Of a DNA stretch of 64,000 nt, positions 36,987 through 53,658 are shown one piece after another; the first letter of the stretch is position 1; each line of letters begins with the position of its first letter. The translations under genes and the position numbers were made by a program. This DNA comes from an uncultured Verrucomicrobiae bacterium (GTDB lineage Bacteria; Verrucomicrobiota; Verrucomicrobiia; Chthoniobacterales; Xiphinematobacteraceae), in NCBI GenBank assembly GCA_963706715.1, contig CAVPNI010000001.1, positions 416,001 to 480,000 of the forward strand, in the 5' to 3' direction. Below the pieces are notes generated by a model. That model did not search any database, was not told the DNA's origin, and was given only the letters and a program-made list of their open reading frames with translations.

Positions 36987-37112
36987 CCTTGCGGAAGCGG
37001 TCTTCGGTTAGCTCTACTAGAGCGCAAGATTTCTCGGCTGGAAATCAGATGGACTCGGCTGGAAATCAGGTGGATCAAATGGATGATAGGGATCCAATTA
37101 TGCTTTTTTACT

Positions 37113-37241
37113 TTAAATGTAAATAGAGGTAACTGCTGGCAAAATAGTCCCACATGCGGCTAACTTTGCATTTACAAGCTGACGCGTTGCCTGCTTTGCC
37201 TGCTCGATATCCGGAAATGTGGTCAAAACTAATCGGATCAT
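37113..37241 (-). pseudogene. cutA: Truncated cutA copy fused to a DUF1640-gene fragment
   Basis: Matches the first ~43 codons of 52950-53267, then jumps to sequence from 53367 onward. Confidence 0.85.
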
Positions 37242-38314
37242 GCAGCGACTGGGAGTGATTTTCGACAGATCCATCCACCACCTTCCACCTGGTCACCGTG
37301 GTAGAATACAGCGGCTTGTCCGGGTGTAATTGCGCGCTGAGATTCGCTCAGACGAATTAAAGCGCGTCCGTTTTCCAAGGGCTGGACCCATGCTGAGGTT
37401 CCGGCGTGGGCATAACGGATTTTTACGGTCATTTCTTTGCCGGTGTCGGGCGGGGAGTGTAACCAATTGAGACGGTCAACTTCGAATTCTTCCTGAATGA
37501 GATCGGTTTCAAATCCAACGATGATTCGAGAACTGGCGGGATCAATATCCACAACGTAAAGCGGTTGGGGTGAGCCGCCAGGCAAACCTTTACGCTGACC
37601 AATGGTGTACATCTCAATCCCATCGTGGGGTCCCAGGTATTTCCCGTCGGTATTATAGATCCCGCCGGGGTGAAGTTGATCTTCTCCTAGGTGACTCCGT
37701 AAAAATGCCTTATAATCGTTGCCTGGCACAAAGCAGATTTCCTGGCTATCTTCCTTATCCGCCACTTTCATGCCGAGCTCGCGGGCAATGCCGCGGATTT
37801 GGTCCTTTGTCATTCCACCAAGGGGAGTCAACGCGCGGGAGAGTTGTGTCTGAGACAGGCTAAAGAGGAAGTAGGATTGATCTTTCCGTGGGTCCCGCCC
37901 CTTCCGAAGCACAACGCCAGATGCCGTGTGCTCAATGATTGCATAGTGACCGGTGGCAATGTACTCGGCACCCAGGGCACGAGCTTTCTCCCACAAATTT
38001 CCAAATTTAAGCTTCTCATTGCACATGACACAGGGATTTGGAGTCCGCCCAGCCCGATATTCGCTGGAAAAGTAATCTATGACGAGCCGCTCAAAATCCG
38101 CTGCTTCATCGACTACGTAATGCGGGATGCCCAAGGCATGCGCTACCCCACGTGCATCCGCAACAGCTTGAGGCCCACAGCATTTGTCTTCAGCTCGCGA
38201 AATGCAATCCTGTGGCCAAACTTTCATAGTCACGCCGACCACGTCCCACCCCTGCTGCTTTAAGAGATAAGCGGTCACGCTGGAGTCTACTCCCCCACTC
38301 ATCCCTACGAGCAT
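37238..38314 (-). CDS. mnmA: Second tRNA 2-thiouridylase copy, lacking the N-terminal leader
   Basis: Protein is the same as 51829-52953 from LVGMSGGVDS onward except TKDQ vs TKEQ; ATG arises at a deletion junction. Confidence 0.8.
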   Translation of the reverse strand: MLVGMSGGVDSSVTAYLLKQQGWDVVGVTMKVWPQDCISRAEDKCCGPQAVADARGVAHALGIPHYVVDEAADFERLVIDYFSSEYRAGRTPNPCVMCNEKLKFGNLWEKARALGAEYIATGHYAIIEHTASGVVLRKGRDPRKDQSYFLFSLSQTQLSRALTPLGGMTKDQIRGIARELGMKVADKEDSQEICFVPGNDYKAFLRSHLGEDQLHPGGIYNTDGKYLGPHDGIEMYTIGQRKGLPGGSPQPLYVVDIDPASSRIIVGFETDLIQEEFEVDRLNWLHSPPDTGKEMTVKIRYAHAGTSAWVQPLENGRALIRLSESQRAITPGQAAVFYHGDQVEGGGWICRKSLPVAA

Positions 38315-38503
38315 ATATTGAATGGGTCAACCATCGCTCCTAAAAGTGCGTAACGTCAGTTACTGAAAATCTACGCGTTCTCTCGGGTGTTTTTTACTTA
38401 AGGATCATCAGTTGCCTCTACCTGAATTTCCAGTTAGAAATTCAAGCCATATTCGCCGAGTCTTTAACCGAACATTAAAGTTCACTAAAAATATCAAAAA
38501 ATT

Positions 38504-38893
38504 ATGCCAATTCAATTTATAGCAAACAAGGCGATTACGAATTTGCTGATGCTTACAGGAGCTCCCACCAAGACAGGAAAGAATATTAAACCGTCTCCCT
38601 GGAATAAATTCACTCAAGCAATAGGCATTTCCAAGTCGCGTCAGATGACGCAGGCACATACTTTGATTTCCAACAACAGCCCATTTAAAATTTCGTCAAG
38701 CGATGCTCAGAAGAAGAAAGGGCCTTCTCTTGAACAGGTTTGGAGTAAGCATGGTATCTTAAAAAAGAGCGGAAATCTTAAAGAGAGTGATATTCCCCTT
38801 TCCGAAGAAAAGCCCTTAAAAGTATCTTTCAAAGAAAATGCCTCTTCGCCGAAATGCCTCTTCGACGAATTAAGTGGTGAATCGGAAATATAG
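38504..38893 (+). CDS. Hypothetical protein, short diverged paralogue of 50599-51528
   Basis: MPIQFIANKAITN..PTKTGKNIKP..WNKFTQAI..SKSRQ vs MSVQSIANKALTS..PTETGKNTKP..WARFTKAI..SKPRQ. Confidence 0.65.
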   Translation: MPIQFIANKAITNLLMLTGAPTKTGKNIKPSPWNKFTQAIGISKSRQMTQAHTLISNNSPFKISSSDAQKKKGPSLEQVWSKHGILKKSGNLKESDIPLSEEKPLKVSFKENASSPKCLFDELSGESEI

Positions 38894-39131
38894 GTTTTTC
38901 CGGAATTTTAATGGATAAAGGGAAGGAAAAAGATGACTCTTCGCTATTAAAATCGGGCTACTAAGTGAAGAATATACCCGATCATTGACCCACAACTCAA
39001 TCCCCCTACCTCCCCTTTGGAGGGGGATTAGTTGGTGTGTCTGGCATGAATAACAAACAGGAGGTAAAAGTCCAAACCTAGGACGCTGGCGGAATCCTCG
39101 GGGAGTCGCTTATTTTTAGTACTATACTAAA

Positions 39132-51528: not shown

Positions 51529-51828
51529 ATTTTTTTGATATTTTATATTTTTAGTGAGCTTTAATGCTCGGTTAAAGATTCGGCGAGTATGCCTTGAGTT
51601 TCCAATTGGAAATTTAGGCAGAGGTCACTGATGATCCTTAAGTAAGAAATACTCGAGAGGCTGCGTGGATTTTCAGTAAAACACGCAGGAGATAAATATA
51701 TTGACAATCAAATCCATGTTTACGGAAAGCTCAGATATGGGCGCGTCCGTGCATAACAACCCTCTTCCAGCGTGGTGCGAAGAGCGATGGTTGACCCATT
51801 CAATAGTAGCAGTTATTCTTATCCACTT

Positions 51829-52953
51829 ATGAGCATCGATCAACAAGCTGGTCTTCCCTTTGGACATGGAAGACGTGTGCTCGTAGGGATGAGTGGGGGA
51901 GTAGACTCCAGCGTGACCGCTTATCTCTTAAAGCAGCAGGGGTGGGACGTGGTCGGCGTGACTATGAAAGTTTGGCCACAGGATTGCATTTCGCGAGCTG
52001 AAGACAAATGCTGTGGGCCTCAAGCTGTTGCGGATGCGCGTGGGGTAGCGCATGCCTTGGGCATCCCGCATTACGTAGTCGATGAAGCAGCGGATTTTGA
52101 GCGGCTCGTCATAGATTACTTTTCCAGCGAATATCGGGCTGGGCGGACTCCAAATCCCTGTGTCATGTGCAATGAGAAGCTTAAATTTGGAAATTTGTGG
52201 GAGAAAGCTCGTGCCCTGGGTGCCGAGTACATTGCCACCGGTCACTATGCAATCATTGAGCACACGGCATCTGGCGTTGTGCTTCGGAAGGGGCGGGACC
52301 CACGGAAAGATCAATCCTACTTCCTCTTTAGCCTGTCTCAGACACAACTCTCCCGCGCGTTGACTCCCCTTGGTGGAATGACAAAGGAGCAAATCCGCGG
52401 CATTGCCCGCGAGCTCGGCATGAAAGTGGCGGATAAGGAAGATAGCCAGGAAATCTGCTTTGTGCCAGGCAACGATTATAAGGCATTTTTACGGAGTCAC
52501 CTAGGAGAAGATCAACTTCACCCCGGCGGGATCTATAATACCGACGGGAAATACCTGGGACCCCACGATGGGATTGAGATGTACACCATTGGTCAGCGTA
52601 AAGGTTTGCCTGGCGGCTCACCCCAACCGCTTTACGTTGTGGATATTGATCCCGCCAGTTCTCGAATCATCGTTGGATTTGAAACCGATCTCATTCAGGA
52701 AGAATTCGAAGTTGACCGTCTCAATTGGTTACACTCCCCGCCCGACACCGGCAAAGAAATGACCGTAAAAATCCGTTATGCCCACGCCGGAACCTCAGCA
52801 TGGGTCCAGCCCTTGGAAAACGGACGCGCTTTAATTCGTCTGAGCGAATCTCAGCGCGCAATTACACCCGGACAAGCCGCTGTATTCTACCACGGTGACC
52901 AGGTGGAAGGTGGTGGATGGATCTGTCGAAAATCACTCCCAGTCGCTGCATGA
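51829..52953 (+). CDS. mnmA: tRNA-specific 2-thiouridylase
   Basis: VLVGMSGGVDSSV, TPNPCVMCN, ATGHY, KDQSYFL, SQEICF, YTIGQRKGL, ITPGQ. Confidence 0.97.
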   Translation: MSIDQQAGLPFGHGRRVLVGMSGGVDSSVTAYLLKQQGWDVVGVTMKVWPQDCISRAEDKCCGPQAVADARGVAHALGIPHYVVDEAADFERLVIDYFSSEYRAGRTPNPCVMCNEKLKFGNLWEKARALGAEYIATGHYAIIEHTASGVVLRKGRDPRKDQSYFLFSLSQTQLSRALTPLGGMTKEQIRGIARELGMKVADKEDSQEICFVPGNDYKAFLRSHLGEDQLHPGGIYNTDGKYLGPHDGIEMYTIGQRKGLPGGSPQPLYVVDIDPASSRIIVGFETDLIQEEFEVDRLNWLHSPPDTGKEMTVKIRYAHAGTSAWVQPLENGRALIRLSESQRAITPGQAAVFYHGDQVEGGGWICRKSLPVAA

Positions 52954-53267
52954 TCCGATTAGTTTTGACCACATTTCCGGATATCGAGCAGGCAAAGCAG
53001 GCAACGCGTCAGCTTGTAAATGCAAAGTTAGCCGCATGTGGGACTATTTTGCCAGCAGTTACCTCTATTTACATTTGGGAAGGCACTTTGGAGGAAGCTT
53101 CGGAATGTCTTCTTCTTTTGAAGACGACCGCTGACCGCGTCCAGGAATTACAAACGGAGCTTTTGAAGATGCACCCTTACGAAGTCCCTGAGATTGTGTC
53201 CATTGCTCCGGATTCTTTCCATAAAGCTTATGCGGAATGGGTGCTTTGCCAATGCAAACACGATTGA
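52950..53267 (+). CDS. cutA: Divalent-cation tolerance protein
   Basis: LAACGTILP.VTSIYIWEG, LLLKT, HPYEVPEI. Confidence 0.92.
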   Translation: MIRLVLTTFPDIEQAKQATRQLVNAKLAACGTILPAVTSIYIWEGTLEEASECLLLLKTTADRVQELQTELLKMHPYEVPEIVSIAPDSFHKAYAEWVLCQCKHD

Positions 53268-53316
53268 TTTTCGAGGTGTGTAGCGGCAAAACAGGACACA
53301 CCCGGCCGCTGGTTTT

Positions 53317-53658
53317 CTATTTTGAGTGCAGAAAATAGATCAGACCCAGTATTGAGGCCATTGTGAAAGTAAAAAAGCATAATTGGATCCCTATCATCCA
53401 TTTGATCCATCTGATTTCCAGCCGAGTCCATCTGATTTCCAGCCGAGAAATCTTGCGCTCTAGTCGAGAAAATCCATCGTCAGTCTTTTTTTCTAGCCGG
53501 GCTTCCAGTTTAGCCAATTCGACTGTCAAAAAAGTCTTTGTAACTAAATCGCTGTCTTGAATCGCTACCATAACTTGCTCCACTATACACTCGGCTTGAG
53601 GAGGTGTAAAACCTGTCTCTTTGAGTTTGTGCGCCATTTCTAAAGTTTTGGGGCTCAT
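53317..53658 (-). CDS. DUF1640/CCDC90-like coiled-coil protein with C-terminal TM helix
   Basis: LKETGFTPPQAE, DLVTK..L, IKWMIG followed by a hydrophobic tail; 21-bp repeat (RLEIRWT). Confidence 0.75.
   Translation of the reverse strand: MSPKTLEMAHKLKETGFTPPQAECIVEQVMVAIQDSDLVTKTFLTVELAKLEARLEKKTDDGFSRLERKISRLEIRWTRLEIRWIKWMIGIQLCFFTFTMASILGLIYFLHSK

Follow-up and report, generated by a model that had tools for sequence, protein, structure and literature searches.

A trimmed inverted copy of the pyrG-mnmA block with a second, diverged orphan gene in an uncultured Verrucomicrobiae bacterium

Two inverted copies of the pyrG-mnmA block

The stretch of 64,000 nucleotides analysed here (the window, G000:C1:416001-480000) comes from an uncultured Verrucomicrobiae bacterium and carries the housekeeping genes pyrG, mnmA and cutA twice, each time with an orphan gene between pyrG and mnmA (X-A in copy A, X-B in copy B; Table 1). 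The assembly, G000, consists of 3.04 Mb in 4 contigs, and the best named relatives of its mnmA belong to Verrucomicrobiota, mainly metagenome-assembled genomes of Chthoniobacterales and Terrimicrobiaceae. Self-BLAST and exact comparison showed, as the initial annotation had proposed, that copy A (37016-40433) repeats copy B (49241-53464) in inverted orientation. Copy A is specific to this lineage and represents the pyrG-X-mnmA-cutA block, inverted and trimmed by deletions.

Taken together, the arms show 3 substitutions and 1 single-base indel between the two copies in 2,676 bp, a match far beyond chance. The pyrG arm (39080-40433 = 50593-49241) showed 0 substitutions in 1,354 columns and one extra G in a G-run near 39100, and the mnmA arm (37115-38313 = 53076-51878) showed 2 substitutions in 1,199 bp, at 37802 and 38153. 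One of the latter alters the protein, giving D in copy A and E in copy B. The outer fragment (37016-37114 = 53464-53366) has 1 substitution in 99 positions, and a short island (38316-38339 = 51805-51782) is identical at 24/24. At the protein level, the 411-aa pyrG open reading frame (ORF) of copy A is identical to residues 123-533 of the full pyrG, and the mnmA product, which matches MnmA model positions 3-345, differs at one residue, both as first described. The truncations noted at the same time were also found: the pyrG of copy A lacks its first 100 codons, and its cutA consists of the first 53. The missing DNA comprises 289 bp (the 3' half of cutA through the end of the CCDC90-like gene), 70 bp at the mnmA 5' end and ~100 bp of the mnmA upstream region. 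The middle between the arms, which contains the promoter and the X N-terminus, is identical at 233 of 284 aligned bases (about 82%), and the difference between this value and the 3 substitutions of the arms upholds the earlier statement that arms and middle are of different ages.

The identity of the arms matches that of the recent repeats of the genome, for which the median was 99.7% over 2,088 alignments of at least 1 kb and at least 95% identity and 99.6% for low-copy repeats selected at at least 98% (n=35), both sets being cut by their identity threshold. A genome-wide scan for colinear chains returned 10 chains, and the pyrG-mnmA duplication was the sole one in housekeeping genes. Repeats are abundant, with 19% of bases having another copy at at least 90% identity and 12% having three or more, which would give room to an assembly artefact or a strain chimera, and polishing could slightly raise arm identity. 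Such an error is nevertheless very improbable. Copy A holds unique DNA, namely X-A, and its four junctions are unique as well; a collapsed repeat would not create them. The locus lies in the middle of an 830-kb contig, the assembly has a completeness of 100% and a contamination of 1.08%, and a strain with only copy A would be without a full pyrG.

Native position of copy B and insertion of copy A

We compared the locus with 40 relatives, 4 of them congeners (G001-G004; G002 is 73% complete). The order crcB-pyrG-gap-mnmA-cutA-trpC was kept in two of the four congeners (G001 and G002), and the gene order from ubiA to pyrG was also kept in G002; in G003 and G004, mnmA is located ~39 kb away from pyrG. 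In G001, the porin homologue and mnmG are convergent and ~75 bp apart, which represents an empty site seen in 1 congener, and G002 gave no match for either gene. The kept pyrG-mnmA order, together with the adjacency of porin and mnmG in G001, indicates that copy B is native and that copy A was inserted at the porin-mnmG junction in this lineage. A second near-identical pyrG was absent from 40 of 40 relatives: the four that had two pyrG matches showed either split contigs (G005 and G006) or distant matches at 27% (G010 and G039). In all four congeners mnmA was single. Searches of metagenome and genome contigs detected no conspecific genome and no close relative outside the genus, with best mnmA identities of 78% and 89%, and pyrG was found within the flanking DNA at 1 of 160 mnmA loci, many of which are short.

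The orphan genes X-A and X-B

The X-A and X-B proteins share 43-45% identity over the first 90-100 residues and nothing significant beyond, in agreement with the initial description of a diverged orphan (129 and 309 aa) whose similarity is lost after the N-terminus. Their promoters are identical at 120/142 positions, so that the upstream region, at 15% divergence, is moderately and not, as had been stated, heavily diverged. Indels in the aligned N-terminus preserve the frame, both copies retain the upstream element and the ATG, and the GC content is 0.41 in each. The synonymous and nonsynonymous divergences were dS 0.26 and dN 0.27 over 46 codons, or dS 0.45 and dN 0.36 over 76 codons, and dS for pyrG and mnmA between G000 and G002 was about 1.2. 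Because the dS of X-A/X-B lies below the latter value and above the arm divergence, the two genes appear to have split inside this lineage, long before the arms. The last base of the X-A stop codon is the first base of an insertion sequence (IS) end, and X-A and X-B, both of which end at mobile-element sequence, may have been shortened.

A HMMER search over 1.84 billion representatives returned only X-B and X-A. In two further candidate sets, 1 of 14 and 1 of 546 passed, each being the query itself; there was no usable ESM Atlas match, and Pfam gave only a sub-threshold match to WASH-4_N. No third copy was detected in G000 by tblastn, blastn or promoter profile, which leaves a total of 2 X copies and none of the further arm-flanked paralogues that had been envisaged. 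By these searches, X is a true orphan whose sole homologue is its twin.

On an ad hoc N-terminal score applied to 2,166 ORFs, X-B ranked in the top 1.6% and X-A in the top 6.9%, with a Ser/Thr-rich start. G000 carries a non-flagellar type III system, with SctJ, N, R, T, U and V above NCBIfam cut-offs (cluster at G000:C2:61388-76191; L141, L142), which suggests a host-associated lifestyle; SctV was matched in 4/4 congeners (3 above cut-off), two 0.9-Mb genomes included. The type VI component VasE gave no match. X may be a fast-evolving secreted protein. The earlier wording "effector-like" may be kept as a lead, in that injectisome genes are present and the N-terminal scores are raised, although the G002 gene pair that shares the X promoter (see below) scored average.

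The upstream element of X was unconvincing as an RNA structure (consensus -3.8 kcal/mol; no Rfam match near the cut-off) and, with only 3 matches in the genome, also as the motif of a wide regulon. Sigma-70 scans remained at chance level. A third, distant version of the element precedes a 310-aa orphan with a Ser-rich start (G000:C1:100179-101240; L227), which is unrelated to X-B.

A tandem pair with a homologous promoter in a congener

The pyrG-mnmA interval has the native gene order in G001 and G002, and its orphan content is variable, as the comparison of related genomes suggested at the outset showed. The gap of G002 contains, on the same strand as X, four orphan ORFs of 152, 154, 195 and 256 aa, and that of G001 contains one 199-aa orphan between two ends of a miniature inverted-repeat transposable element (MITE). 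Judged from these predicted genes, the gap is hypervariable between species. The 195- and 256-aa ORFs of G002 are tandem paralogues with dS 0.48 and dN 0.49, and their upstream regions are identical at 128/152 positions (84%), compared with 85% for the X-A and X-B promoters. When a profile of the upstream regions of this pair was run against the 3.04-Mb G000, the top two matches were the promoters of X-B (E 2.6e-5) and X-A (E 4.9e-5), followed by a match at 0.19. The reverse profile, built from the X promoters and run against 131 fetched loci with 11 own-genome loci left out, found the two of G002 (E 2.9e-6 and 8.9e-5). A likeness between the N-terminus of X and that of the 154-aa ORF, seen by eye, was not significant and was dropped. 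Upstream of crcB, G001 encodes a 495-aa protein that has an Anthrax_toxA-type domain (L031:3794-5281), and a 272-aa orphan follows cutA (L031:12237-13055); both are further variable genes around the block.

Junctions of copy A

Three of the four joints of copy A, at which young DNA meets old DNA or the edge, fall on mobile-element ends, with microhomology of 3-9 bp. At the inner edge, pyrG codon 101 is fused to an IS end through up to 9 common bases. This end is identical to 3 other copies at 62/62 positions and to a fourth at 60/60, and the element that bears it, which we take to be IS701-like, encodes a DDE_5 transposase. A MITE end lies upstream of X-A and has 4 bases in common with the 24-bp mnmA island to which it is joined. 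The ~90-bp MITE has 154 matches in G000, 127 of them near full length, and a strict test detected a 7-bp target duplication at 16 of 32 intact copies. Its end resembles the DDE_5 IS end at 40477-40489, and the same family flanks the gap orphan of G001 as an inverted pair. Downstream of X-A, stubs of an ISL3-type element, a further repeat and a group II intron are 94%, 91% and 96% identical to their best other copies, and the intron stub is joined to the pyrG arm by the 3-bp microhomology AGG.

The deletion joints thus carry GCTC, AGG and ACGCCTCTC, that is, microhomology or IS ends; the 289-bp deletion is blunt and the 70-bp deletion nearly so. The outer (left) edge is without an element end and is spanned by a 5-bp hairpin, GCTCT-ACT-AGAGC, which was noticed post hoc. 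The near-identical 99-bp and 24-bp islands are each cut off by deletions, which implies that two deletions arose in the time of three substitutions. The element ends at the joints, the isolated islands and the G002 tandem pair with its homologous promoter were absent from the initial annotation.

Reciprocal loss of old tandem paralogues as the favoured explanation

We favour, with a probability of about 0.5, one recent inverted duplication of a gap that held two old tandem paralogues, each copy then losing one of them. The contrast between arms and middle had been regarded as beyond the reach of a single recent duplication; it is within reach if the gap held such a pair, and G002 has one. We infer the tandem ancestor of X-A and X-B from this analogue and not from a seen ancestor. 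An old tandem duplication of promoter and X would have given the order mnmA, unit X-A, unit X-B, pyrG, and a recent inverted duplication, by fold-back or template switch or by IS activity, would have followed. X-B could then have been lost from copy A by a single deletion that reached from the intron stub to the repeat next to pyrG, and X-A could have been lost from copy B by recombination (pop-out) between the two units at their 5' ends. The loss of X-B from copy A would correspond to the visible intron-to-repeat joint.

The same contrast of ages is seen in the mobile elements, since the inner-edge IS end is 100% identical to other copies and the stubs beside X-A are 91-96% identical to theirs. 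With deletions about as fast as substitutions, the arms should not have lasted while X diverged by 15-25%, and by our estimate the divergence of X would need roughly a hundred times longer. Because pyrG of copy A is without 100 codons, mnmA without its leader and upstream region, and cutA reduced to half, the housekeeping parts of copy A are presumably passengers, and only X-A seems to keep promoter and frame. Most likely, the duplication is rearrangement debris rather than a gene-swapping switch.

Several observations weigh against this explanation. The tandem proteins of G002 are not detectably homologous to X, the promoter alone being common, and the congeners and the contig and homologue searches yielded no genome in which X-A and X-B are neighbours. 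Copy B shows no visible trace of the loss of X-A. When the two mnmA substitutions are polarised, one falls to each copy (one outgroup was uninformative), and the identity of the 24-bp island would arise by chance with a probability of about 2% by our estimate. The loop is flanked by two stubs of one rare repeat, inverted relative to each other (40487 and 50627); they hint that the A site was rearranged at an earlier time and are left unexplained by the favoured model. Finally, a pair of elements on contig C3 has blocks of 99.6-99.9% identity beside blocks of 50-94%.

This pair (C3:133424-154384 and C3:474615-511029) consists of alternating blocks at 99.6-99.9%, 94%, 88%, 71% and ~50% identity with abrupt borders. 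It is putatively conjugative, as judged by flanking integrase matches, and it is the better candidate for conversion or mosaic exchange. The blocks indicate that homogenising recombination or mosaic acquisition occurs in G000. Like copies A and B, the pair has near-identical blocks that abut diverged blocks; unlike them, it is made of mobile-element genes in direct orientation, 340 kb apart, with many alternating blocks. It is because of this evidence of mosaic-forming recombination that the two alternatives that follow keep the standing we give them.

The first of these, which we regard as unlikely, is that the inverted duplication is old, that its arms were kept identical by gene conversion or repeated inversion, and that mobile-element insertions together with selection for two X alleles shielded the middle. 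The two ages of the sequence, the inverted arms of 1.2-1.35 kb placed 9-14 kb apart in a genome that has recA, the heterologies on either side of X-A and the in-frame indels of the X N-terminus are all consistent with it, as are the patchwork of the C3 pair and the old stubs around the loop. However, deletions in copy A are about as frequent as substitutions, and the lost arm ends would be beyond repair by conversion. The cut-off islands are near-identical, the IS end at the edge is young, and copy A is absent from all 40 relatives, though these are all distant. No converted tract was found in the middle, where the longest identical run is 20 bp (P=0.63 against shuffles, a test of low power over 284 columns).

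Alternatively, after a recent local duplication, a conspecific strain could have supplied one copy with a different X allele through the housekeeping arms, or a donor block could have been captured ectopically. The hypervariable gap (one orphan in G001, four in G002), a dN of X-A/X-B that is near dS, and the presence of conjugative-type elements and a ComEC gene argue for such an event, yet the ComEC gene (G000:C3:45375-46196) is interrupted by an internal TAA, the GC contents of X-A and X-B are alike, and no donor was found in the homologue and contig searches. A donor would also need housekeeping genes that are 99.9% identical and yet a promoter that is 15% different. We hold import to be decidedly unlikely. 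Of the two mechanisms offered by the initial annotation, conversion and allele capture, both are possible and neither is favoured. The broader proposal that pyrG and mnmA serve as long arms, either homogenised or swapping in alleles from other strains, with two type III effector alleles under selection between them, which would make the locus a two-slot effector exchange site made of core genes, is doubtful.

It is improbable that X-A was an old paralogue already present at the porin-mnmG junction, around which the arms were copied in by separate template-switch or repair events. The stub at 40487 is oriented as X-A and belongs to the same family as the stub fused to X-B, and microhomology joints are located on both sides of the pyrG arm, as this scenario would have it. 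It requires, however, two independent insertions that restored the native gene order, and a common derived change of the two stubs was unconvincing in the alignment. The notion that these stubs are halves of one broken element was likewise weakened on alignment.

Comparison with known systems

We found no report of this locus or pattern in literature searches. Passages of a study of amplified segments in E. coli (PMC8763031) describe internal deletion as fast and partly IS-promoted, and passages of PMC4689423 describe a fold-back origin of inverted duplications in Salmonella. The present locus is like a remodelled E. coli amplification or a Salmonella tandem inversion duplication in that an extra block copy was trimmed by deletions, some of them IS-promoted, with junctions of little homology. 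As in the Salmonella case, the inverted copy lies beside the native block. The 5-bp hairpin of the left edge, recognised after the fact, may be a further likeness; the inner edge is an IS end. The absence of the copy from relatives and the empty site in G001 agree with a remodelled inverted segmental duplication. Unlike the laboratory-selected cases in those two species, the duplication is natural and fixed in the assembly, no triplication is left, and a different paralogue is enclosed in each copy.

Reciprocal (differential) loss after duplication is a concept mostly from eukaryote genomics. Here, as there, each copy would retain one of two older paralogues, so that an old middle lies between young flanks; the differences are the scale of 3-5 kb, the bacterial setting and an ancestral pair deduced from a congener. 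Under the favoured explanation, the locus would be a natural snapshot of an IS-rich genome separating tandem paralogues: the block is copied, and each copy then loses another one of the pair. A diverged gene between identical arms is not by itself proof of conversion or cassette exchange.

In Anaplasma, the passages of PMC1366493 on p44/msp2 describe a system of 113 loci with a single expression site, in which the silent reserves have no start codon and the flanks belong to the gene itself. A variable centre between conserved flanks in a probable host-associated bacterium is common to that system, as so described, and to the present locus, which differs in having 2 copies, both with promoter and start, and housekeeping genes as flanks. 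No cassette library, silent reserve or conversion tract of the p44/msp2 type was found, the promoters and ATG codons being read from sequence alone. The idea of a locus for swappable cassettes found little support: there are only 2 X copies, each with its own promoter, no patchwork was seen, and none of 40 relatives shares the arrangement. Inverted repeats of 1,354 and 1,199 bp do bound the loop, but a linked recombinase and short sites were not found; the 13 tyrosine-recombinase and 4 resolvase matches all fall outside the window, the nearest being 29 kb from copy B. Inversion of the loop, also raised initially, is possible via the arms and recA, but it would leave gene content as it is and each X behind its own promoter, and only cutA would lose its native upstream region.

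In this genus, which is related to Chthoniobacterales and has type III secretion, the pyrG-mnmA gap appears to be a hot spot for orphan genes that share a promoter element. Were the gap an exchange site after all, core genes acting as exchange arms for effector alleles would constitute a new route to effector variation.

Features of the locus and its surroundings

Table 1. Features in and around copies A and B (window positions)
Feature	Position	Strand	Remark
Porin-like gene	36011..36928	+	Left native flank of insertion site; porin-like by sequence reading, no Pfam match
Copy A CCDC90-like internal fragment, 99 bp	37016..37114	+	Left edge of duplication
Copy A mnmA arm	37115..38313	-	First 53 cutA codons and mnmA without 5' leader; 358-aa ORF 37238-38314
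24-bp island of mnmA 5' sequence, deletion on each side	38316..38339	-	
End of ~90-bp MITE	38336..38362	+	Joined to 24-bp island by microhomology GCTC
X-A upstream (promoter) element	38360..38503	+	
X-A, 129-aa orphan	38504..38893	+	
Train of older mobile-element stubs: ISL3-type end, further repeat end, group II intron 5' end	38893..39083	+	
Copy A pyrG arm, codons 101-533 and 3' spacer	39080..40433	-	
Young IS end (DDE_5 transposase family), inner edge of copy A	40427..40489	+	
Older repeat stub; repeat found at end of DDE_Tnp_1 element elsewhere	40487..40538	+	92% to C3:55894
Single-copy loop: mnmG, bcp, ubiA-like, DUF1318, crcB, pyrG 5' end	40540..49240	.	mnmG, bcp and ubiA named by sequence reading
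Native pyrG (CTP synthase), 533 aa	48941..50542	+	
Second stub, same repeat family as 40487-40538; gives last X-B codons	50574..50627	-	90.7% to C3:55989-55936
X-B, 309-aa orphan with internal repeats	50599..51528	-	
X-B upstream (promoter) element	51529..51683	-	
Native mnmA with leader	51772..52953	+	
Native cutA	52917..53267	+	Pfam CutA1
Native CCDC90-like gene	53317..53709	-	Pfam CCDC90-like, below cut-off

Further genes of the window lie on both sides of the duplication. A 2,041-aa protein with a TcdA/TcdB pore-forming domain (17251-23376, + strand; Pfam E 3e-12) has the appearance of a large toxin, and a 1,703-aa autotransporter with long coiled-coil repeats (25233-30344, - strand) gave a v-SNARE-like Pfam match (E 1e-10). 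Three tandem porin-like paralogues follow at 33694-36928 (+ strand), two of which were scanned without a Pfam match; G001 has two. Beyond copy B, there are a fragment of an Rhs gene (54750-56294, - strand) and an IS110 transposase gene (57571-58878, + strand).

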